Assembly (NCBI GenBank): GCA_016704325.1
Contig: JADJAG010000005.1
Span: 135,860-199,859, forward strand
From: Chitinophagaceae bacterium
GTDB taxonomy: Bacteria; Bacteroidota; Bacteroidia; Chitinophagales; UBA10324
Direction: 5' to 3'
DNA length: 64,000 nucleotides
Below are positions 3,683-63,284 of this stretch, in pieces. The translations under genes and the position numbers were made by a program. Under the pieces are notes generated by a model that was not told the origin of the DNA, searched no databases, and saw only the letters and a list, made by a program, of their open reading frames with translations. Within the stretch, counting starts at the first letter, position 1, and every line of letters begins with the position of its first letter.

Positions 3683-5745
3683 ATGCATCCATTTGTAATA
3701 TATGTTACCTGGCATCCCTTGTTTGAAGATGGGAAACACTATGCAGAACGAATTTATCAAACCTTTAACAGAAATTTTGCTGATCCATTCAGCCGGAGCA
3801 TAGGCATTCCCGTCTTTTACAGATCCATCAGCAATACCGGAAGTGAAGAGGAAGTACCTGCTGCTATAGATCCCGATGGCGCTGAACACACCGCAATTGT
3901 ATTACTGGTAGATGATTGCATGGTCATTCACCGGCAACAATGGGCAGACTACCTGCAGCAACTGGTAGCTTTAGATAAGGGAAATCATCAGGTGAGAATC
4001 TATCCTGTCGCCATCTCGAAGACTGCATTCAGTGTGAGTGATGTGGTGAATGATAAGAATTTTGTAAGGGTATTTGAGAAAGAGACGACGGAACAGAAAG
4101 CGCGGTTTTTAACGGTAACCCTTGCTCACGAATTTTGCAGGCTGATACTTGGTTTTCAGAGAGCAACGGATCCTAAACAAGATTCATTACCAAGACTTAA
4201 GCTTTTTCTCAGCCATTCAAAAGCAGATGGAGTGGAGATCACCAAACTGTTGAAATACTGGATACAGGAATTCACCGGATTGGAGACCTTTTTTGATGCA
4301 ACCGATATTTCACCGGGAGAATTGTTTGCCGAAGCGATTGACAAAGGAGTGGGCAATTCAAGTTTGCTGGTGGTTCAGACCGATATCTTCAGTAGCCGTG
4401 AATGGTGCCGTGCAGAAGTGCTGGAAGCCAAGAGACACAATCGCCCGGTGGTGGTAGTGAATGCCCTTGATAAAGGAGAGTCCAGGAGTTTTCCATATAT
4501 GTGTAATGTTCCGGTTATACGTTGGAAAAATGAGAGTGCTGCTGATTTTTCATCATTGATTGAACGTATCATTTTAGCGGTGTTGCTCGAAACGCTGCGG
4601 CATGCTTACCAGGGCAAACTGATTGAACATCAGTTTAAGACGTTTCTGAAACCCGGAACAGATTACAAGTTGCTAAAGAATGCACCGGAATTACTCGACC
4701 TGGTAAATACAGAAGAAGCATCAGTCAATTTGAATCGACACTTCATTTATCCTGATCCTCCATTGGGTAATGGCGAGCTGCAGATCCTCAGGCGCTGCAT
4801 GCCGGGTGCGCAATTCAGCACACCCATTCAGCTGATTCGCGATGAAGCAAAAAAAAGTGCCTCACGGGATAAGTTTACAATTGGGCTCTCTATTTCGGAA
4901 TCTGAAAAAATGGAAGTGCGCGGATTGAGTACCGATCACCTGAAAGATGTAATGGTGGAAGCTGCACGTTACCTGTTGGCTTCAGGCTATTCTCTTGCAT
5001 ATGGTGGCGATATACATTACAGTGCGGGCTTCAATTTTGCCATGTTGCTGAAGGAGATGGTGATGACTTACCGTGCCGATTATAAAGGAGAAAACGCCAG
5101 GGTTACCAACTATGTGGCCTATCCAATCTTTCATACGATCAGCACTGCTTTGGAAGCGGAATTAATTGACGTGGTGCGCTTTATCCGTGTTCCCCGCCTG
5201 TTGACCTGGCCATAAATAAGAAGGACGACTGGCAACGGATTTTGAAAGCGGAAACGGTGCACGACCAATACCTTTTTGCCCGGTGCCTTACAGAAATGCG
5301 TTTGATTATGAATGAGTCTATTGATGCGCGAATAATCCTTGGCGGAAAGCAGACCGGGTATAAAGGTCGCTACCCCGGATTGATGGAAGAAGTATTGATA
5401 GCGATGACTTCTCATAAGCCGGTATTTATCATTGGTGCATTCGGAGGTTGTGCGGCGTCTGTTATTCAGGCTCTGCTTGGAGAGACACCGGAAACTTTAA
5501 CAAAAGAGTATCAATACAAAGTAGCACAATACAAAACGCTTGCAAACTATTATCAACAACAGGATGCTGGTGCGGTAAATGAAATCAACTACGAGAAGGT
5601 GGTTGGATTCTTCAACAGTGCAGGCATAGAAGGACTAAACAACGGATTGTCGCCTGATGAAAATAAAATGCTGTTTACCAGTGTTGATGCCGGGCTTGTG
5701 ATCTCTTTGCTTTTGAAAGGGCTGAGCAGTTGTGTAAACAAATGA
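3683..5745 (+). CDS. TIR-like / TIR / SLOG three-domain protein. As assembled it is split by a 1-nt frameshift at the C-run 5192-5195 (ORFs 3683..5215 and 5242..5745).
   Basis: Residues 1-100 are TIR-like (PFVIYVTWHP...GIPVFYRS...IVLLVDD). The central domain is a canonical TIR (KLFLSHSKADG...ETFFDATDISPGE...SSLLVVQTDIFSSREWCRAEVLEA; the WCRAE codons are 4403-4417). The C-terminal domain is SLOG-like (FTIGLSISESE...LAYGGD... in the first ORF and ARIILGGKQTGYKGRYPGLMEE...PVFIIGAFGGCAA in the second). The second frame is open from 5170, and adding one C gives ...RFIRVPPPVDLAINKKDDWQRILKAE... Confidence 0.75.
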
Positions 5746-7064: not shown

Positions 7065-8845
7065 ATGAAAACCGTAAAAGACCTGCTGCAAAAATTTGAC
7101 GGCGGAGGCAATGAGACCACACAGGACATCACCAACAATCTAACTTCAACCAATGATCCCAAATCGTATGAAGCTTTGGGTGATGTTCAGGTGAAGCTGG
7201 GTGACTATTTCAGAGCCGTGGAATTCTATGACCGCGCTATTTTCCTCGATCCGGAAGCTTCAGCGCCATGGAGAAAGAAAGCAGATGTTTATTCCGTTAT
7301 GGGAAGATATGCCGAAGAGCAACAGGCAAAGGCACGATATACGGAATTGTTGAGTGTGGAACGCTTTCGCAATAATCTCACACGTGCCACCAGGTTGTAT
7401 GCTGTGGAAGTAGCGAACCTGCCTTTCTATGGTTCTTTTTCCTGGCACTTGCGCGGCAGCATGAATATTATGCTGGGAAAAAACGGTTATGGAAAAAGTC
7501 ACCTCATGTCGATCATGCTGGCCTTATTGCAGGAAGAAGAGAAGTTATTGCGTGACCTGACCATGATGGACAAAGCCTCTCCAACTCCTGCTCCCTATTT
7601 TAAAATCTCTTTTCAGTCGGATCATGAGCGCGATGTGCCCTTGATGGAATCGTTGCAGCAACAGGTGGAGGAAAATCAAAATTGCGATCAGCGTTTCTTG
7701 CACGGCAGCGTGCGGCGAGGACTCCTGCTGATCAGACTGTAACAGAAATTGCACCACCTGTTACAACGGAATGGGATGGTGAATTGATCAGGCTGCAAAA
7801 GCAACTAGAACTGTTGGAAGGAATAGCTTACTTTGATAAGCTGGGTATTCAGTCTTCCTATGGTAAAATCCCTGTACTGGCAATTCCTGATTCGAGGTTC
7901 ATAAATAAATCAGCGGAGTCCACTTCCATTAGAAATGATGAACGATCTAAGAAAATACTGGAAAACGGAGCATACCAGTTTATGCTGCAGGTACCGTATG
8001 AAGATGTGATTCAGAATTTATTGAATACCATCTCTACCATCTACCTTGATGAAAGGAATTTTGAGGATGAAATATTTCAGCTCATCCGCCGTGTTTTCAA
8101 ACGCCTTACCGGAAGTGAATTTGTGTGGGATACTATTCAGCGTACAGAAGATAATTCCGGTTTTATTATCAGGGTGAAGACAGAAGGCGCAGATACTTCG
8201 CTTCCGATACAGAAAGCCTCGCAGGGCACATTATCCGTTGTCGCGATGATTGGAACGATGTATCATTATATGTCGCTTCGTTATCCTGCTGTTTCGCGCA
8301 AACAGGTGACCCGGCAACCGGCTATTATTTTTATTGATGAGATTGATGCGCACCTGCATCCGAGCTGGCAGCAAAAGATTATCGGAATTTTGCGTAATGA
8401 GTTTCCGAATGTACAATTCATTATTTCAGCGCACAGCCCGCTGGTGATAGCCGGATGCAAAGAAGAAGAAGTGTGTGTGCTGCGAAAGCGCGACAAAGGA
8501 TTTACGATGGAGATCATTGAATCTAACCTGATTGGTAAACCCATCGCCGATATCTTCAGGATGATTTTTGAAGTGGAAGAAAAGAATGAAATGTATTTGC
8601 AGCTGGCAGCGCTGATGCCCTTTAAAAATTCCATTAAATCGAAAGCGCAGGCTCTCCGTGAAAAAACGACACGCGATGAAAAGGAAGAGCAACAACTGCA
8701 GGAGTTAGAGCAGCAGATTGAGAATTTTGTTTACCTCGAACAGTTTGATACCATCCGTTCTACCTTTGAAGAACTGGAAGATTTGAAGAATGCGAATGAG
8801 ACGTTGAAGATGGAGGTGGAGCGGTTGCGGGCGAGGTTGGGGTGA
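7065..8845 (+). CDS. TPR-containing ABC-type (AAA_15/AAA_21-like) ATPase with a C-terminal coiled coil. As assembled it is split by a frameshift at the A-run 7678-7681 (ORFs 7065..7742 and 7682..8845).
   Basis: A TPR-like segment is YEALGDVQVKLGDYFRAVEFYDRAIFLDPEA. The Walker A motif GKNGYGKS is at 7475-7498. Walker B and the D-loop are AIIFIDEIDAHLHPSWQ, followed by FIISAHSPLVI. Adding one A restores ...QQQVEENQKLRSAFLARQRAA... Confidence 0.7.
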
Positions 8846-9157
8846 ATGGTTAAATTGTTGAATTGTTGAATTGTTAAATGGTTAAATGGTTAAATGGTTA
8901 AATGGTTAAATGGTTAAATGGTTAAATGGTTGAATGGTTGAATGCTTAAATTGTTAAATGGTTGCAGCGAAGCTGATGCGATGGGGAGGTTGATGAAAAT
9001 TTTAAATTTGAAAATATTGAATATTGAATATTGGATATTGGATATTGAGTGTTGAATATTCAATATTCAATATTCAACACTCAATATTCAACACTCAATA
9101 CTCAATACTAACGACTTCCGACTAATTACTTCCGACTAACTACTAACTACTAACTAC
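8845..9157. repeat. Nested low-complexity block: 15 units of the 8-mer AATGGTTA, the hairpin CAGC-GAA-GCTG, a 7-mer array ATTGAAT mirrored by ATTCAAT (a palindrome with arms of about 45 bp), then CGACTTCCGACTAA x2 and ACTAACT x3 abutting the next ATG.
   Basis: I counted the units directly. The 8-mer units run 8845-8964, the palindrome is centred near 9057/9058, and the ACTAACT run ends at 9157. The block has the same architecture as the 195-202 bp MITE at 28749 and 56538, but greatly expanded. Confidence 0.85.
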
Positions 9158-10149
9158 ATGGATACCAAAGTAGAATCTCTCGTAAAAATGTTTGGTGAAA
9201 ATGCCCTGACGGACATTGAAACCAACATTGAGCCGTTGATAAAAAAGTATTTTAATGCAGAGTGGGATGCTGTGTATCAACAGGAGTTTTTTACAAAGCA
9301 TTATGAACTGATTCGCGGTTACCGGAAGAAGCTGGATGAGCTGACGGGCAATGCGTTGAATACAAAGGAAAAGATTATTGCCGCATTGAGTTTCTGCTGG
9401 AAGGAAGCTAATTTCAATAAATCGGAGGCCACGATATTTTATTCAAAAATGGAATTATTTCACCGGCTGGTGAATGAAATGTTGAAGAACGAATGGACGC
9501 CGAAACAGCAGGAACACTTCAATACGGTTGCCGTGATATTCCGTGATTATCACAATTATTTTCTTTCCTATACCAACCATCTTTCGCAGGCCATCAACCA
9601 GGCATACAAGATTATCTATGAAGCGATTTTGAATAAGGAAGATTATTCCGGCGAAGATTTCAGCAAGCGCAACCTGCTGGCCAAAGCCTTTCACCGTTTC
9701 CTTCACCTGAAAAATATCCGCAAGGGTTTCTTCGACCTCGACTCCATCCGGCTGGCGCAGGGCATTGACGATAAAGTGACTGCCAATGCCAGCAAATCCA
9801 TAGCCTTTATTCAATTGATTTCCATGGCATCTTTTGAATACAATGAACCCAACTGGAGTTATATTGAATACCTGACGTATACAAAAGCAAGAGACGTTTT
9901 CAAACAGCAAAACGACCACCGTTCCGGTTTCTCTCCTTTACTTTTTATGTTTTCACAGAAAAGAATGCATTACCGCCTGAATCGCTGATCCCCGACGATT
10001 ATAAAGTTTGGTCTGCCTCCACGAATGAGAAGCTGCACTGCGATCTTACGGCTATCAATACCTACGAAGATTTTGTGAAGGAAATTGAAAGACTGATCAA
10101 TGCCATTATCAATTATAAATCTGAAATGGTGAATAGTATTCCGGATTGA
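9158..10149 (+). CDS. Helical N-terminal domain plus a TIR-like domain. As assembled it is frameshifted near the T-run 9950-9953, and the track ORF 9158..9988 continues in another frame to a TGA at 10147-10149.
   Basis: NYFLSYTNHL...KGFFDLDSIRLAQGIDDKVTANASKSIAFIQLISMASFEYNEPNWSYIEYL follows the TIR pattern F.SY...FfD...i..G..i...i..S...i.liS......W...E (the WSYIE codons are 9854-9868). The alternative frame reads FTEKNALPPESLIPDDYKVWSASTNEKLHCDLTAINTYEDFVKEIERLINAIINYKSEMVNSIPD*. The gene is AT-rich: my hand count of two lines gave about 33-35% GC. Confidence 0.55.
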
Positions 10150-10193
10150 AAGGAGGCAGCATGGGGGACTATTTTTATGTGCGCAGCCTCTTT

Positions 10194-10336
10194 AGTCATC
10201 GGATGACTATAATTCAATGTATTGATTGAGCAGTTTTACTTTAAGTCATCCGATGACTTTCGGCCGGTTGTAGTCATCGGATGACTTGTATTCAGTAGGT
10301 TGATTTTCCAAATTTGTTATAAGTCATCCGATAACT
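10194..10336. repeat. Four copies of the 15-bp palindrome AGTCATC[G/C]GATGACT, arranged as two tandem units of about 78 bp.
   Basis: The copies are at 10194-10208 (centre G), 10244-10258 (centre C), 10272-10286 (centre G) and 10322-10336 (degenerate, centre C). The spacings are 50, 28 and 50 bp. The inner segments are related (attcaatgtattgatt versus attcagtaggttgatt). Confidence 0.85.
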
Positions 10337-10376
10337 ATCATTGAGACAAGATGTAAGTAAAATTTGGAATAGGAAA

Positions 10377-11087
10377 CTAAATAAACTCCTCCACAGAAAT
10401 CTTCAATACCTCAAACGCTTTTTTAGCAGCCAATTTCTCCGCGTTTTTTTTATTCGTGTCTTCGCCTTCTCCGTATTCTTCTCCATCAATTATTGCCGCA
10501 ACTTTATACAAAGCACGATGGCGGTGACGGGAGTGGTTTTTACGGCGAAAGTGAGGAGCGTCCTGATTTCTGCGCCCATTCCAGCAGCTTGCTTTTATAA
10601 TTGAATTCGCTGATCTCCAACTCCCCGATATCGAGAAATGGTTTCACAATTTTTTTGATGATAAAATTGTGCGCGCTCTTATATCCTTTGTCGAGATAGA
10701 CTGCTCCTACCAGGGCTTCCAGCGCATTGCCGGTAAGTGACTTTTTATTGATCAAGGGATCTGCTGAACTATAGGAAAGATATAAGTCAATGCCCATCTT
10801 ATGAGAAACGGTCTTCAATTGGCTCCTGCTTACCATTTTTGAGCGGATATCAGTCAGGTAGCCTTCATCTTTGTAGGGGAATTTTTAAATAGGTAATCAG
10901 CTATTACGGCACCGAGTACGGCATCGCCTAAAAATTCGAGGCGTTCATTGCTTTCGTATATTTCTTCGGCAGAAGAACTGTGGCGAAAGGCCATTTCATA
11001 CAATAACAGGTTGGAAGGCGAAATGCCGGTGAGTTCCTTTACCTGCGAGTAGAACGCTTTCTTTCCTGAAAATAATCGTCGAATCAA
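10377..11087 (-). CDS. rnc: Ribonuclease III. As assembled it has at least two frameshifts.
   Basis: The signature [20 protein letters not shown] is present. Adding one base at the T5 run 10882-10886 restores [25 protein letters not shown]. The C-terminal dsRBD (...[45 protein letters not shown]) lies in a third frame that ends at the stop 10379-10377. Confidence 0.85.
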
Positions 11088-11116
11088 ACGAACGGCTTGT
11101 GTGGTATCCTAAAATG

Positions 11117-11149
11117 AAAAAACCCCGGCAGAAATAAATCCTGCCAGGG
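11117..11149 (-). terminator. Rho-independent terminator between fabF and rnc.
   Basis: The minus strand reads CCCTGGCAG-gatttattt-CTGCCGGGG followed by TTTTTT. The stem is 9 bp with one G-U pair. Confidence 0.6.
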
Positions 11150-11169
11150 TAAAAGGTAGAAAAAAATTA

Positions 11170-12426
<1,257 letters not shown>

Positions 12427-12438
12427 GTAAAATTCGGA

Positions 12439-12678
12439 TTAAGACTTTGCGTACTGCTCGATGTAAGCGATGGCCTGGCCAACTGAAGTGATAGTTTCAG
12501 CCTGCTCGTCAGGGATGGAGATATTAAACTCTTTCTCGAACTCCATGATCAACTCAACCGTGTCGAGAGAATCGGCACCAAGATCATTGGTAAAGGTTGC
12601 TTCAGGCGTAACCTCGCTTTCATCAACGCCTAATTTGTCAATGATGATCTTCTTAACTCTTGCTGCGATGTCTGACAT
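12439..12678 (-). CDS. acpP: Acyl carrier protein.
   Basis: The 79-aa product carries [16 protein letters not shown] with the phosphopantetheine Ser, and the gene lies immediately upstream of fabF. Confidence 0.95.
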
Positions 12679-12840
12679 AAAAAATTATTGGTTTATGTGG
12701 ATTAATTTTTGGCAAAGTAAGGGATTTCAGTTTTTATACGCAATCTTTTGATCAATTATTTTCAGACACTTGTTTTGAGTCATTTTACTGTGAATACACT
12801 GAAGTAACAGGTATGCCGTATTGGTCAATGTCTCTACAAT

Positions 12841-13329
12841 TTGTTTAAGTCACTCCAATCGTGTAGGTTTGAAAGGCATCAGCCAACAAAAAGGGGAATA
12901 GCGAGTGTCGAAGAAAAAACAATTGCGCTCGAAGAGCAATTTACCGGACTTTTATGGGCCATTGTTGCACCGCTGAAGGAGTATCAGTTGGGATGGCATA
13001 TAAATAAAGTGCTGGGATTTGAACTGAAGAAGGCTGATGATATGGAACTGATACATAAGAAGCGCCATAAGACATCAGTTTACAGTTGTTACAAATACGA
13101 GAGTGAACTGGATAAATGGCTGGTGTACGTAGTTTCGAATAAAAATTCAGGCGAGTTCCTGGTACCTGAAGTGAGGCAGGCGGATTATTTTCTGATTATC
13201 CGTGGTGAAATTTCTGTGCAAAGGGAAGAGGAGCTGTTTGTTAAACTAAGGAGCATACCGGTTATTCAACTAGTAGTGAAGATGAACTTTGATCATTTGA
13301 AATCGAAGGCCAACCTGATGATTGATTAG
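12841..13329 (+). CDS. IPExxxVDY family protein. The start is uncertain: the track uses TTG and there is no in-frame ATG near the expected N-terminus.
   Basis: The motif LVPEVRQADYFLIIRG is present and the gene is divergent from acpP, which is the usual Bacteroidota context. Confidence 0.65.
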   Translation: MFKSLQSCRFERHQPTKRGIASVEEKTIALEEQFTGLLWAIVAPLKEYQLGWHINKVLGFELKKADDMELIHKKRHKTSVYSCYKYESELDKWLVYVVSNKNSGEFLVPEVRQADYFLIIRGEISVQREEELFVKLRSIPVIQLVVKMNFDHLKSKANLMID

Positions 13330-13362
13330 CTTATCAATAACTGCGAATTATTTATTGAATCT

Positions 13363-13541
13363 GTAACTACTCAGTAGATGAACATTTAAGAAATAGAACA
13401 CGGATAACACTGATCAAACGGATTCTTACGGATTTTTATCTGATCATTTGATAAGTGTGCTTTGAATGATCACTGTTATAATCTGTGGTTATCAGTTAAA
13501 TCTGTGTCATCCGTGTGCCATTTTTCTTTTCTGCTTAGTAG
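13363..13541. repeat. Dispersed intergenic repeat, family B (CACGGAT-word element), copy 1.
   Basis: Nearly the full length aligns to the reverse complement of 28944-29120. A shared stretch is ...ctactcagtagatgaa.atttaagaaatagaacacggataacactgatca.acggattc.tacggattt... tctgtgtcatccgtgtgcc. Confidence 0.8.
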
Positions 13542-20281: not shown

Positions 20282-20374
20282 ATGAACAACTTTCGCCAGC
20301 GTTTTTTTGTGAGGTAGACAACGGTGCCGGCGCTAATGCTGCATGTCAAAAGTAGACATGATATTTTGATCCTT

Positions 20375-20922
20375 ATAATAGAAAGATTGAATGGATGTAC
20401 TACAATTAGTACTTTCTGAAAAGTGGAAAAATCAGCGCTAAGACGCAAAGCCGCCAAGACTACCTCTTAGCAGCTTTTCGCTTAATAAGCTTTTTTACAA
20501 GGAAGTATAATATAATAGAAAGATTGAATGGGTGTACTACAATTAGTACTTTCTGAAAAGGGGAAAAATCAACGCTAAGACGCAAAGCCGCCAAGACTAC
20601 CTCTTAGCAGCTTTTCGCTTAATAACCTTTTTTACAAGGAAGTACATTATAATAGAAAGATTGAATGGGTGTATTACAATTAGTACTTTCTGAAAAGGGG
20701 AAAAATCAACGCTAAGACGCAAAGCCGCTAAGACTACCTCTTAGCAACTTTTCGCTTAATAACCTTTTTTACAAGGAAGTACATTATAATAGAAAGATTG
20801 AATGGGTGTACTACAATTAGTACTTTCTGAAAAGGGGAAAAATCAGCGCTAAGACGCAAAGCCGCTAAGACTACCTCTTAGTAACTTTTCGCTTAATAAC
20901 CTTTTTTACAAGGAAGTACATT
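20375..20922. repeat. Tandem array of four 137-bp units.
   Basis: Unit starts (ATAATAGAAAG) are at 20375, 20512, 20649 and 20786. Each unit contains GGGTGTACTACAATT, which resembles the MITE terminus, and GCGCTAAGACGCAAAGCCGC(C/T)AAGAC. Confidence 0.9.
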
Positions 20923-28748: not shown

Positions 28749-28943
28749 GGGTGTACGACAATTCATGCATCTTGTCAAGCAATGGTTGGTGGGTTAAATG
28801 GTTAAATTGCTAAATGGTTAAATTGTTGCGGCGAAGCCGATTACTTGGCATTCTGTAATCACTACCCTGCTTTACTCACTTACTCAAATACTTAATACTC
28901 AAATTCAACACCCAATAATCTATATCCAGTTTGTCGTACACCC
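28749..28943 (+). mobile_element. MITE family A, 195 bp, with terminal inverted repeats GGGTGTACGACAA / TTGTCGTACACCC.
   Basis: The 13-bp terminal repeats are perfect. The interior has (GGTTAAAT)n, the hairpin GCGGCGAAGCCG and ACTCAAATACTTAATACTCAA words. It is roughly 90% identical by eye to the reverse complement of 56538-56739. No clear target-site duplication is visible here, and another repeat abuts its right end. Confidence 0.8.
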
Positions 28944-56537: not shown

Positions 56538-56739
56538 GGGTGTACGACAAATTGAATATAGATTATTGGGTGTTGAAATTGAGTATTAAGTATTTGAGTA
56601 AGTGAGTAAAGTAGAGTAGTGATTACAGAATGGCAAGTAATCGGCTTCGCCGCATCAATTTAACCATTTAGCAATTTAACCATTTAGCAGTTTAACCTCC
56701 AACCATTGCTTCACAAGATGCACGAATTGTCCCACACCC
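56538..56739 (-). mobile_element. MITE family A, 202 bp, flanked by a perfect 8-bp target-site duplication GTAATAAT.
   Basis: The termini are GGGTGTACGACAA (56538-56550) and TTGTCCCACACCC (56727-56739). The duplication is at 56530-56537 and 56740-56747. The copy is inverted relative to 28749-28943. Confidence 0.88.
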
Positions 56740-60655: not shown

Positions 60656-61020
60656 ATAAAAGGAAGCACAGAGCCCACCAAGAAAATTATTGACATAGAC
60701 CCGGTTTGAAGCAATTCCACCTCTGTGTACTTTGTGGTTTCAAAAAAAAGTAACCACAAAGCCCACAAAGAAAATTATCAATAAAAACCCCGTTTGAAGC
60801 ACTTCCACCTCTGTGTACTTTGTGGTTTCAAAAAAAGTAACCACAATGCCCATAAAGAAAGTTATTATCATAGGCCTGGTTTGAAGCACTTCCACCTCTG
60901 TGCACTCTGTGGTTTCAAAAAAAGGAAACCACAAAGCCCACCAAGAAAATTCTTAATAAAGACCTCGTTTGAAACAATTCCACCTCTATGGTTTCAAAAA
61001 AGGTAAACACACAGAGCACA
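60656..61020. repeat. Tandem array of about 4.2 units of 87-88 bp.
   Basis: The CCACCTCT landmark recurs at 60717, 60805, 60892 and 60980. Each unit junction can fold as CTTTGTGGTTtcaaaaaaagtAACCACAAAG. The array abuts the stop of the minus-strand gene at 61024. Confidence 0.88.
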
Positions 61021-62061: not shown

Positions 62062-62409
62062 ATGAAAATATACCTGCTGATTGTGAGCGCCATGCTGTTA
62101 TTGGACGCTAAAAGTTGTGATAAAAAGGCGATTTCCACAACGCCGGAGTGCATCCTGCAAATGATTGCCGAACTTCAAAATAAACCAAAACAAAATCCCG
62201 CTGCTTCCATTTATCAGTATGACTACCAGGGACAGAAAGTATATTATGTGAATGCACCATGCTGTGATCAATGGAATAAATTGTACACTGCCGATTGCAC
62301 GGTCCTTTGTCATCCCGATGGTGGAATTACCGGAAAAGGTGATGGCAAATGCACTGACTTTAACAATTCAAAAACTAATGAAGTATTAATCTGGAAAGAT
62401 GATCGTTGA
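62062..62409 (+). CDS. Hypothetical small secreted Cys-rich protein.
   Basis: A signal-like N-terminus is present, and the six conserved-looking Cys residues include the pair in APCCDQW. Confidence 0.5.
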   Translation: MKIYLLIVSAMLLLDAKSCDKKAISTTPECILQMIAELQNKPKQNPAASIYQYDYQGQKVYYVNAPCCDQWNKLYTADCTVLCHPDGGITGKGDGKCTDFNNSKTNEVLIWKDDR

Positions 62410-62414
62410 TTCAA

Positions 62415-62475
62415 CAGTTAAACAGTTTAGCCATTTAACCATTTAACCATTCAGCCATTCAACCATTTTACCATG
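62415..62475. repeat. An 8-mer microsatellite with seven units of CCATTTAA-like sequence, the reverse complement of the GGTTAAAT word of MITE family A.
   Basis: The units are cagttaaa, cagtttag, ccatttaa, ccatttaa, ccattcag, ccattcaa and ccatttta. Confidence 0.8.
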
Positions 62476-62552
62476 TAATCATCCCCACATCTCAACCCAC
62501 ACTCTAAAAGCAAAACTTTTCCTACTTTTATTTCACAAATCAACAATACCCC

Positions 62553-63111: not shown

Positions 63112-63205
63112 TGCATTTTACATCTTGTTAATGTAAAACGGGGCAAATTTAACATTCTCAGCATAGAATGGAAAATTGAATTTTGTGCCTTCCGTTTATA
63201 TAGCA

Positions 63206-63284
63206 GCAATTTAACCATTTAGCCATTTAACAATTTAACCCACCAACCATTGCTTAACATGCTAAACGATATGTAGTACACCCC
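63206..63284 (-). mobile_element. Half copy (one arm) of MITE family A.
   Basis: gcaatttaaccatttagccatttaacaatttaacccaccaaccattgcttaacatgc...gtagtacacccc parallels 56661-56739. The opposite arm is missing. Confidence 0.65.

Follow-up and report, generated by a model that had tools for sequence, protein, structure and literature searches.

Genes Flanking the Repeat Block

The window analyzed here is a stretch of 64,000 nucleotides from a Chitinophagaceae genome. On its forward strand, the 3′ part of a PtuA-like AAA_15/AAA_21 ATPase gene (7682–8845, assigned by Pfam, PADLOC and the gene calls of relatives) is followed by an intergenic repeat block (8845–9157, 312–313 bp) and by a downstream gene to which no family could be assigned (9158–10149). 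The ATPase gene of relatives encodes one protein of 991–1008 aa with a DUF4407-TPR-ATPase arrangement, and the frame breaks found in the window fit long-read homopolymer errors like those on the 3′ side of the block. Genes of the defence type adjoin the block, namely TIR-SLOG and the PtuA-like ATPase.

The product of the downstream gene has 330 aa in all relatives, and its MDTKVE start is shared by homologues. The shorter reading of 276 aa in the window results from the loss of one T in a T-run near 9942, and an exact look-up of the 276-aa product gave no match because this assembly error shortens it. The repeat arrays mislead gene callers into false N-terminal extensions, as in a 371-aa call for the 330-aa protein. 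The initial annotation had called this gene a TIR gene. However, neither profiles nor PDB sequences gave a TIR-domain signal, the protein had no match in Pfam, PADLOC, NCBIfam or PDB sequences, and the low-confidence structural model (pLDDT 52, which makes for a weak fold test) was all-helical with no fold match. The TIR-domain identity was rejected as unsupported, and the gene is not recognisably TIR.

Organization of the Repeat Block

The block is a patchwork of 8-base and 7-base tandem repeats together with a long hairpin, and it fills the gap from the ATPase stop to the next ATG, as originally described. The stop codon TGA (8843–8845) abuts the first unit, the final A of TGA doubling as the first base of octamer unit 1. 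The codons before the stop, which had been likened to a word of the miniature element family A, are conserved coding sequence (A-R-L-G) present also in a repeat-less relative. Tandem Repeats Finder reported 14.9 copies of period 8 at 8845–8963 (90% match, consensus AATGGTTA), 13.6 copies of period 7 at 9013–9107 and a period of 14/7 at 9107–9157. When cut by hand, the octamer array (8845–8964) contains exactly 15 units, of the types AATGGTTA, AATTGTTG, AATGGTTG and AATGCTTA, which confirms the run of fifteen consecutive 8-mers noted before. A 24-mer of three units has 216 matches in the genome and its reversed control has 0.

The octamers are followed by the mini-hairpin CAGC-GAA-GCTG (8965–8975), just where a GAA-loop hairpin had been noted, and by a non-repeat stretch of 37 nt (8976–9012; genome coverage 1) that has no second copy elsewhere in the genome. 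From 9013 to 9157 (145 nt) the sequence keeps a single unbroken 7-nt register of 20.7 units, ending on the ATG; the heptamer runs reported before are present, but as one continuous array. It comprises the left arm of a palindrome (9013–9054; AATATTG three times, GATATTG twice, AGTGTTG), its right arm (9055–9110; AATATTC three times, AACACTC, AATATTC, AACACTC, AATACTC, AATACTA) and a G-poor tail (9111–9157; ACGACTT, CCGACTA, ATTACTT, CCGACTA, ACTACTA, ACTACTA, ACTAC), which shares the register of the arms, is predicted to be unpaired and abuts the ATG. Two copies of CGACTTCCGACTAA had been read near the end of the block, but the second copy is TTACTTCCGACTAA.

The inverted repeat has arms of 43 nt each (9022–9064 and 9065–9107, 86%), and the minimum-energy stem consists of 23 perfect pairs (9038–9060 with 9069–9091). 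The palindrome of the initial annotation is real; its centre lies at about 9064/65, and 9057 corresponds to an alternative register one unit off. It folds at −23.5 kcal/mol as DNA (z = −7.0) and at −38.1 kcal/mol as RNA (z = −7.7), and none of 200 shuffles folded as well. The entire block is also better folded than its shuffles (z = −5.8). In the energy model no significant structure is assigned to the octamer array, to the GAA mini-hairpin or to the final 50 nt. A search of the block against RNA families returned nothing at gathering score, and a permissive search returned only eukaryotic microRNA-precursor models far below threshold, which amounts to the description "long AT-rich hairpin".

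Relation to MITE Family A and Genome-Wide Arrays

Family A is the commonest miniature repeat element of the genome, with the word order terminal inverted repeat, octamers, CGGCGAAGCCG, heptamers, terminal inverted repeat. The internal order (octamers, GAA hairpin, heptamers) is common to the block and family A. There are 156 octamer-plus-GAA modules in the genome, with a mode of 4 octamers and a range of 2–15, so that the block copy ties the maximum. The canonical CGGC-GAA-GCCG occurs in 128 of 138 family copies, which are too uniform for a covariation test; CAGC-GAA-GCTG departs from it by two changes that leave the stem paired. Octamers precede 136 of the 145 such GAA hairpins in the genome. 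The terminal inverted repeats GGGTGTACGACAA and TTGTCGTACACCC have no match within 8500–9500 even at 4 mismatches, and the block is among the 27 of 156 modules without either of them; because it has no ends, a target-site duplication cannot be defined. The allele L081, described below, retains the pre-array word of family A, GGTGGAGGGTTG. The view of the block as an expanded derivative of family A is supported by module counts and word order, with the terminal inverted repeats missing. The palindrome core is found in 34 genomic places, both inside elements bounded by terminal inverted repeats and alone.

No transposase that would mobilise family A was identified in the genome, and no ISKra4 transposase was found. 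Where family A ends are paired at distances of 0.4–4 kb, the DNA between them carries unrelated genes or pieces of other IS elements, and no coding element was found there. Five Y1_Tnp (RAYT-like) genes are present, flanked by different, GC-rich hairpins.

Arrays of this kind are abundant: 286 with period 8 and 265 with period 7 (about 550) were detected, 97% of them intergenic, in every type of intergenic region (by a crude ORF map, 278/286 and 256/265, respectively, lie mostly outside ORFs). Arrays of ACTTCCG and ACTAACT occur in both orientations. The heptamer words recur in different Bacteroidota orders, and intergenic hairpins built of these words are frequent in many genomes of the phylum.

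Alleles Among Close Strains and Presence in Relatives

The initial annotation had proposed comparing strains for unit-number polymorphism and had named a lack of strain-level variation as evidence against its reading. Such polymorphism exists: four alleles, with 15, 9 or 12 octamers where counted, were found among strains whose downstream genes are 95–99% identical. The window allele (312–313 bp) has 15 octamers and a 23-bp stem. The L085 allele (229 bp; downstream gene 99.0% identical) has 9 octamers, a change of −35 nt and an 11-bp stem. The L068 allele differs by +7/−14/+7 nt, with an 18-bp stem, no substitutions relative to the window and different octamer unit types. The fourth allele (294 bp), carried by L081–84 and L087–91, has other heptamer words and no palindrome (fold z = −0.8), with 12 octamers in L081. 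All indels between alleles are multiples of 7 or 8. Every allele ends in CTAACTACTAACTAC-ATG, L068 carrying one extra unit, and the CTAACTA count is 3 or 4. The unique stretch (8976–9012) is identical in L068 and L085 and is replaced by other sequence in L081. The only property kept in all alleles is the G-poor, unpaired last 45–60 nt before the ATG. Scans of metagenome contigs with the unique stretch and with the ATG junction gave no further alleles. Selection on the block was considered from its zero substitutions relative to L068, and this was rejected: in the adjacent gene the substitutions fall in clusters, with 11 in a span of 60 nt, which points to recombination mosaics and makes the contrast between block and gene meaningless.

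Two related lineages, with proteins 87% and 74% identical, have plain spacers of 65 and 55 bp, respectively, with no repeats. Three of five lineages have the block (octamers, GAA hairpin and ACTAAC-type heptamers) at this stop-to-ATG position. No homology was seen between the unique stretch and the relatives' spacers. On the tree (P7,((P3,P4),(P5,P6))), gain followed by loss and two gains are equally parsimonious. The palindrome is missing from the P0005 and P0006 lineages, and its absence from one allele and these two sister lineages indicates that it is dispensable.

Expression Signals

No sigma-70-like promoter was found on the forward strand of the block, and a terminator scan of the block found none, with no U-tract after the hairpin. 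The only TAnnTTTG motif of the block, TAAATTTG (9003–9010), lies within the unique stretch, 155 nt before the ATG. Genome-wide, TAnnTTTG peaks at −40 to −20 (3.5/kb vs. 0.39/kb), whereas its density at −155 equals background; at the usual −40 to −20 before the downstream ATG it is absent. The 55–65-bp spacers of the repeat-less relatives are also without TAnnTTTG, which implies co-transcription with the ATPase gene. In the region −40 to −1 before start codons, ACTAAC ranks 29 of 60 words of the same composition, with no specific enrichment.

Origin and Possible Roles of the Block

The block is probably non-coding repeat DNA, selfish or neutral and prone to rapid slippage, that is tolerated within the spacer of an operon. 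In this reading a family A fragment (octamers and GAA mini-hairpin without terminal inverted repeats), together with heptamer arrays like those making up the hairpin of the sister sub-family, occupies an originally short (55–65 bp) spacer between the ATPase gene and the downstream gene of an operon. After arrival, it would have been quickly remodelled in 8- and 7-base steps, through slippage during replication or unequal exchange, and also by the swapping of whole modules; rapid remodelling would explain the different alleles of close strains. Transcripts that start at the ATPase gene probably continue through the block, since there is neither a terminator-like U-tract nor a promoter at the usual place, and the unpaired, G-poor last 45–60 nt would leave the translation start unhindered. 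Several observations count against this reading. The mini-hairpin stem has been kept through the double change from CGGC/GCCG to CAGC/GCTG, TAAATTTG is present in the unique stretch, and selection, not tolerance, could have retained the block at its shared position in three of the five lineages. Nor was a transposase able to move family A identified.

The initial annotation proposed a possible phase variation of the downstream gene through changes in array length. Slippage of 7 or 8 nt would then alter leader length and hairpin strength and so switch or grade the last gene of a defence operon, which we regard as unlikely. Near-identical strains do differ in unit number and stem length (23, 18, 11 and 0 bp), the arrays abut the start codon with 3 or 4 CTAACTA, the TIR-SLOG and PtuA-like neighbours are of the defence type, and heptamers upstream of start codons have been proposed elsewhere as translational regulators (PMC4679880). 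However, the repeats, placed between stop codon and ATG, do not lie in a reading frame and do not separate promoter elements, every allele keeps the nucleotides before the ATG unpaired and so leaves the start region unaffected, some relatives do without the block, the tail word shows no specific enrichment ahead of start codons and a defence role of the downstream gene is unproven. Similar variation is expected at any of the roughly 550 arrays, and nothing marks this locus, one among them, as a dedicated phase switch. The switch interpretation is not supported: the downstream protein gives no TIR signal, a promoter of the Bacteroidota type is missing at the usual distance, the palindrome is dispensable and the repeat-less relatives point to co-transcription with the ATPase gene.

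Selection for an intercistronic RNA element, in which a REP/BIME-like hairpin stabilises the ATPase message or attenuates read-through and thereby sets the product ratio, is likewise improbable. The hairpin is strong (RNA −38 kcal/mol), it stands between two co-directional genes, the whole block outfolds its shuffles and heptamer hairpins of the same words recur between Bacteroidota genes. But it has shrunk to 11 bp in L085 and is missing from the fourth allele and from P0005 and P0006, it lacks a U-tract behind it and it lies 120 nt past the stop codon, after the octamer array, which is unstructured; the hairpins carried by the genome's five RAYT-like genes are different and GC-rich.

The block might also be a hypermutable intercistronic tuner: slippage in the heptamer arms would set hairpin strength and the number of G-poor CTAACTA units would set the leader, grading the last gene of the defence operon in a Bacteroidota lineage without Shine-Dalgarno-based initiation. 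We give this little credence; if true, it would account for the retention of the block, in differing versions, at one position in three lineages. An artefact of long-read assembly in a low-complexity region is hardly credible and is refuted as the source of the block's existence, for although the window assembly has single-base homopolymer errors, independent assemblies from ENA, NCBI, JGI and Logan contain the block, which is the same base for base outside unit-number changes in the short-read ENA, NCBI and Logan ones, and the differences are all whole units and none homopolymer slips.

The locus offers a clean natural series at one site, from no block through a block without hairpin to hairpins of 11, 18 and 23 bp, and shows the pace of heptamer and octamer array turnover relative to point substitutions. 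A further lesson is that an operon spacer can be filled by pieces of miniature elements, which then fix the present stop of the upstream gene. In practice, such arrays break short-read contigs. On present evidence the locus reveals neither a new regulatory mechanism nor a new defence component.

Comparison With Known Repeat Systems

The STRR heptamers of cyanobacteria are comparable tandem heptamer arrays. Long simple sequence repeats are defined by units of 5–11 nt (Mrazek, Guo and Shah, 2007, via PMC4679880), and the block carries 15 octamers at 90% match and 20.7 heptads head to tail. These systems resemble the present arrays in having tandem 7- or 8-nt units, hundreds per genome, nearly all intergenic and variable among strains, with slippage as the proposed driver and no established function; unlike them, the genome studied here has its arrays in a fixed order inside a family bounded by terminal inverted repeats, and its words are AT-rich and recur in different Bacteroidota orders.

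BrickBuilt of Porphyromonas gingivalis is a MITE with an internal minisatellite of 23-nt units and measured promoter activity (Klein et al., 2015; PMC4596501). Like family A, it is a multi-copy, always intergenic miniature element of Bacteroidota with a variable tandem array between leader and tail. Family A differs in its 8- and 7-nt units and GAA mini-hairpin, and the block has no inverted ends. The TAACTGA direct repeats of Beggiatoaceae, cyanobacteria and some Bacteroidetes (MacGregor, 2015; PMC4679880) are forward heptamers of variable copy number ending a few bases from the start codon, to which the block tail, (CTAACTA)n-C-ATG, is similar. However, the unit of the block is CTAACTA/TAACTAC, there is no specific enrichment before start codons genome-wide and related arrays lie in either orientation. 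The GGGNATC heptamer arrays of Xanthomonas and Nostoc are G-rich, quadruplex-forming and mostly transcribed (Rehm et al., 2015; PMC4692102). They are also abundant, variable in unit number and located near stop codons and upstream of ORFs, whereas the arrays studied here are AT-rich and partly form a duplex hairpin.

REP/BIME and REPIN hairpins with RAYT transposases are dispersed intergenic palindromes between co-directional genes. The palindrome of the block is placed in the same way, but its arms are tandem heptamers, unlike the hairpins beside the Y1/RAYT-like genes of this genome. Phase-variable simple-sequence contingency loci, finally, are known from host-adapted pathogens. They are also mentioned in PMC4679880. 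They share with the block short tandem units beside a gene and unit-number polymorphism, whereas the repeats of the block occupy neither of the usual switching positions and show no evident on/off state. In sum, the block belongs to a known class, that of long simple-sequence repeats, STRR-like arrays and MITEs with internal microsatellites.

Organization of the repeat block

The gap between the ATPase stop codon and the downstream ATG (8845-9157) carries the block of repeats and palindrome claimed in the initial annotation, as confirmed by Tandem Repeats Finder, manual cutting of units and folding. Tandem Repeats Finder returned a period-8 array at 8845-8963 (14.9 copies, 90% matches), a period-7 array at 9013-9107 (13.6 copies) and a period 14/7 array at 9107-9157, and manual cutting gave exactly 15 octamers at 8845-8964 and a single unbroken 7-nt register over 9013-9157. 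Between them lie a mini-hairpin, CAGC-GAA-GCTG (8965-8975), and unique sequence (8976-9012); the ATPase stop TGA (8843-8845) shares one base with the first octamer. From 9013 the heptamers read AATATTG (x3), GATATTG (x2), AGTGTTG, AATATTC (x3), AACACTC, AATATTC, AACACTC, AATACTC, AATACTA, and then ACGACTT, CCGACTA, ATTACTT, CCGACTA, ACTACTA (x2) and ACTAC up to the ATG. The palindrome results from the words of the first six units being reverse complements of those in the next eight. Its arms occupy 9022-9064 and 9065-9107 (43 nt, 86%), the best stem has 23 perfect pairs (9038-9060 with 9069-9091), and the predicted fold energy is -23.5 kcal/mol as DNA (z -7.0) and -38.1 kcal/mol as RNA (z -7.7). 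The energy model gave no significant structure for the mini-hairpin, the octamer array or the last 50 nt.

Relationship to repeats of the genome

The source genome (4.92 Mb, 12 contigs, 41-42% G+C) contains 156 octamer plus GAA-hairpin modules, with both family A ends in 70, one in 59 and none in 27. Family A, the commonest MITE family of this genome, has a fixed order: the left end GGGTGTACGACAATTCGTTCATCTTGTCAAGCAATGGTTGGTGG, the octamer array, TG-CGGCGAAGCCG, about 35 nt of fixed sequence, ACTCAAT-type heptamers and the right end TTGTCGTACACCC. A module usually has 4 octamers and at most 15, the number in the window copy. The heptamer palindrome ATTGAATATTGAGTGTTGAATATT...AATATTCAACACTCAATATTCAAT belongs to a sister sub-family that shares these ends; its 17-18 nt core occurs at 34 genomic places, partly within end-bounded elements and partly alone. 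No family A end-like sequence was found in 8500-9500 with up to four mismatches. The block is therefore a string of family modules lacking the inverted ends and does not qualify as a MITE sensu stricto.

Genome-wide, 286 period-8 arrays (14 units or more in 21 of them, 46 in the longest) and 265 period-7 arrays were detected. A crude ORF map places 97% of the arrays outside ORFs, with divergent, convergent and tandem gaps all represented. When the octamer arrays are read as AATGGTTA, 157 of 211 have a 5' neighbour gene that points away and only 54 one that ends at the array (intergenic base counts predict about 56%), so the TAACCATT strand runs mostly toward a gene start. This bias of family A and its octamer arrays is strong genome-wide (in the window, 28792-28827, 56656-56697, 62409-62482 and 63205-63239); the block has the minority orientation. 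Two larger tandem arrays were seen in the window, at 20373-20922 (137 bp x4.0, 96%, the MITE-end-like word GGGTGTACTACAATT in every unit) and 60658-60987 (88 bp x3.8, 83%).

Among 41 relatives, the octamer word is limited to the source genus and a second genus in the same family. Species-representative genomes carry the 22-nt heptamer core TATTGAGTGTTGAATATTSAAT in 65 stretches, nearly all of them in Bacteroidota MAGs (Chitinophagaceae, Saprospiraceae, Bacteroidales, Cytophagales, Balneolaceae), where it mostly forms one arm of an inverted pair with a short loop; no family A end was found beside any of the matches. Some copies, in the source genome too, adjoin a shared word, gcctaaaataggttgac.

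Five Y1 (IS200/RAYT-like) transposase genes are present in the source genome (C12:135780-136124, C5:34972-35310, C4:562024-562368, C4:566564-566905 and C10:43781-44092), each with its own flanking GC-rich REP-like hairpin family (for example gccccgtaggggc and ccacccttcagggtggg). One has AAGAGCC-type heptamers upstream, and two adjoin long poly-G runs with the appearance of assembly artefacts.

Neighbouring genes

The upstream gene encodes a PtuA-like AAA_15/AAA_21 ATPase, which in relatives is one DUF4407-TPR-ATPase protein of 991-1008 aa. The block sets its present end; compared with the three relatives with recovered ATPase ends, the protein's tail is reduced by 5-9 residues. The codons ahead of the stop do resemble the family A word, as had been suggested, but they encode A-R-L-G, and a repeat-less relative keeps these residues; the similarity is thus coincidental, or microhomology at most. 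In L085 (GCA_018063465.1, 1-1500), the gene is called as three pieces and its ATPase region is, over the final 700 nt, only ~71% alignable to the window, which suggests a rearrangement or insertion 5' of the block in that strain.

The downstream ORF has 276 aa in the window versus 330 aa in all homologues, because one T is absent from a T-run. All homologues start with MD(T/P/A)KVE, indicating that the ATG at 9158 is the true start. An annotated 371-aa form (JGI call; L081-L084, 1501-2616) starts 41 codons 5' of the conserved ATG and passes through the heptamer arrays, an annotation artefact that arises because the repeats are stop-free. Compared with the 98.3% identical contig L067, all single-base indels 3' of the block (9158-13400) fall in homopolymers (T5/T6, A5/A6, G2/G3), the hallmark of long-read consensus errors. 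Such errors are therefore present in the window assembly, and the island's 'broken' genes are probably intact. Substitutions relative to L067 and L068 cluster at 9221-9280 (gene 64-123; 11 in 60 nt), followed by long identical runs, a pattern that suggests recombination mosaics among strains. The downstream gene had been named a TIR gene, which is unsupported: searches of Pfam, PADLOC, NCBIfam and PDB sequences gave no match to the protein, and its AlphaFold model (five sequences) is all-helical and weak (pLDDT 52), with no fold relative found. The actual TIR-SLOG gene is at 3683-5215.

Allelic variation and related lineages

Four block alleles exist inside the window's 90% protein cluster. 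The window allele is 312 bp, with 15 octamers, 26 seven-nt steps past the hairpin (182 nt) and a 23-bp stem. L085 (gene 99.0% identical) has 229 bp, 9 octamers, a heptamer part shorter by 35 nt and an 11-bp stem. L068 (ENA; gene 97.3% identical), whose contig begins within the octamer array, has other octamer types and an 18-bp stem; its heptamer part differs by +7, -14 and +7 nt, with zero substitutions over ~220 aligned nt 3' of the octamer-type differences. The fourth allele, from four JGI metagenomes (L081-84) and five Logan runs (L087-91), all with a gene ~95% identical, has 294 bp, 12 octamers, the pre-array word GGTGGAGGGTTG, the canonical CGGCGAAGCCG hairpin and a different middle, with TTCAAAC/CTCAAAT heptamers and no central stem (fold z -0.8). 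All indels between the alleles are multiples of 7 or 8, so the unit-number polymorphism for which a strain comparison had been proposed is demonstrated (9, 12 and 15 octamers). All four share the 3' end ...CTAACTACTAACTAC-ATG.

Plain spacers without repeats were found in the lineage with 87% identical protein (seven assemblies, 65 bp) and in that with 74% (55 bp; ATPase end ...KLKARLGTTESNTPA*). The 82% and 77% lineages have octamers, a GAA-type hairpin and ACTAAC-type heptamers ahead of the ATG, and no palindrome. On the protein tree (P7,((P3,P4),(P5,P6))), one gain and one loss is as parsimonious as two gains. The 65-bp spacer (L070 3936-4000) shows a faint 8-nt periodicity (AATGAACA / GCAATGAC / GATGAACA) and could be a decayed octamer array; if so, gain then decay would be favoured over never having had it.

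Origin and possible function

Simple scans of 8600-9400 found no + strand sigma-70-like promoter and no terminator. The Bacteroidota TAnnTTTG motif is used in this genome, peaking in density at -40 to -20 from ORF starts (3.5 versus 0.39 per kb overall). The sole copy in the block, TAAATTTG (9003-9010), lies 155 nt 5' of the ATG, where motif density is near background; none was found at the usual position before ATG 9158, or by eye in the relatives' repeat-less spacers. The simplest reading is therefore that the ATPase and the downstream gene share one transcript, which would run through the block.

We consider it likely that the block consists of selfish or neutral repeat DNA which evolves fast, and which entered the operon spacer, was remodelled and is tolerated. 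A truncated family A module may have entered a short spacer, later growing, shrinking and swapping modules through slippage or unequal exchange, and would be tolerated because it neither stops transcription nor covers the start region; the final 45-60 nt before the ATG are predicted to be unpaired in all alleles and lineages. That the whole-unit length differences mark a contingency or tuning locus seems unlikely: the tail word ACTAAC shows no specific enrichment before start codons (rank 29 of 60 among same-composition words). Its sense/antisense asymmetry (61 versus 9) arises because leaders are generally G-poor (G 14.8%), and related heptamer arrays occur in both orientations relative to genes. 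A selected REP-like intercistronic hairpin, for which the strong stem might speak, is rather improbable; no U-tract follows the hairpin, which is missing in one allele and two lineages and measures 11 to 23 bp elsewhere. An assembly artefact is most improbable and, as to the existence of the block, refuted by the independent assemblies.

Cyanobacterial STRR repeats are part of a known class of such repeats. In the summary of Mrazek et al. (2007) in PMC4679880, heptamers predominate among long simple sequence repeats; GGGNATC heptamers are known repeats of the same class (PMC4692102), TAACTGA repeats are located ahead of start codons (PMC4679880), and BrickBuilt is a Bacteroidota MITE with a variable internal tandem array (PMC4596501). 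The block belongs to the same known class as all of these, and what is particular to it is its modular order and a well-resolved allelic series at one site.
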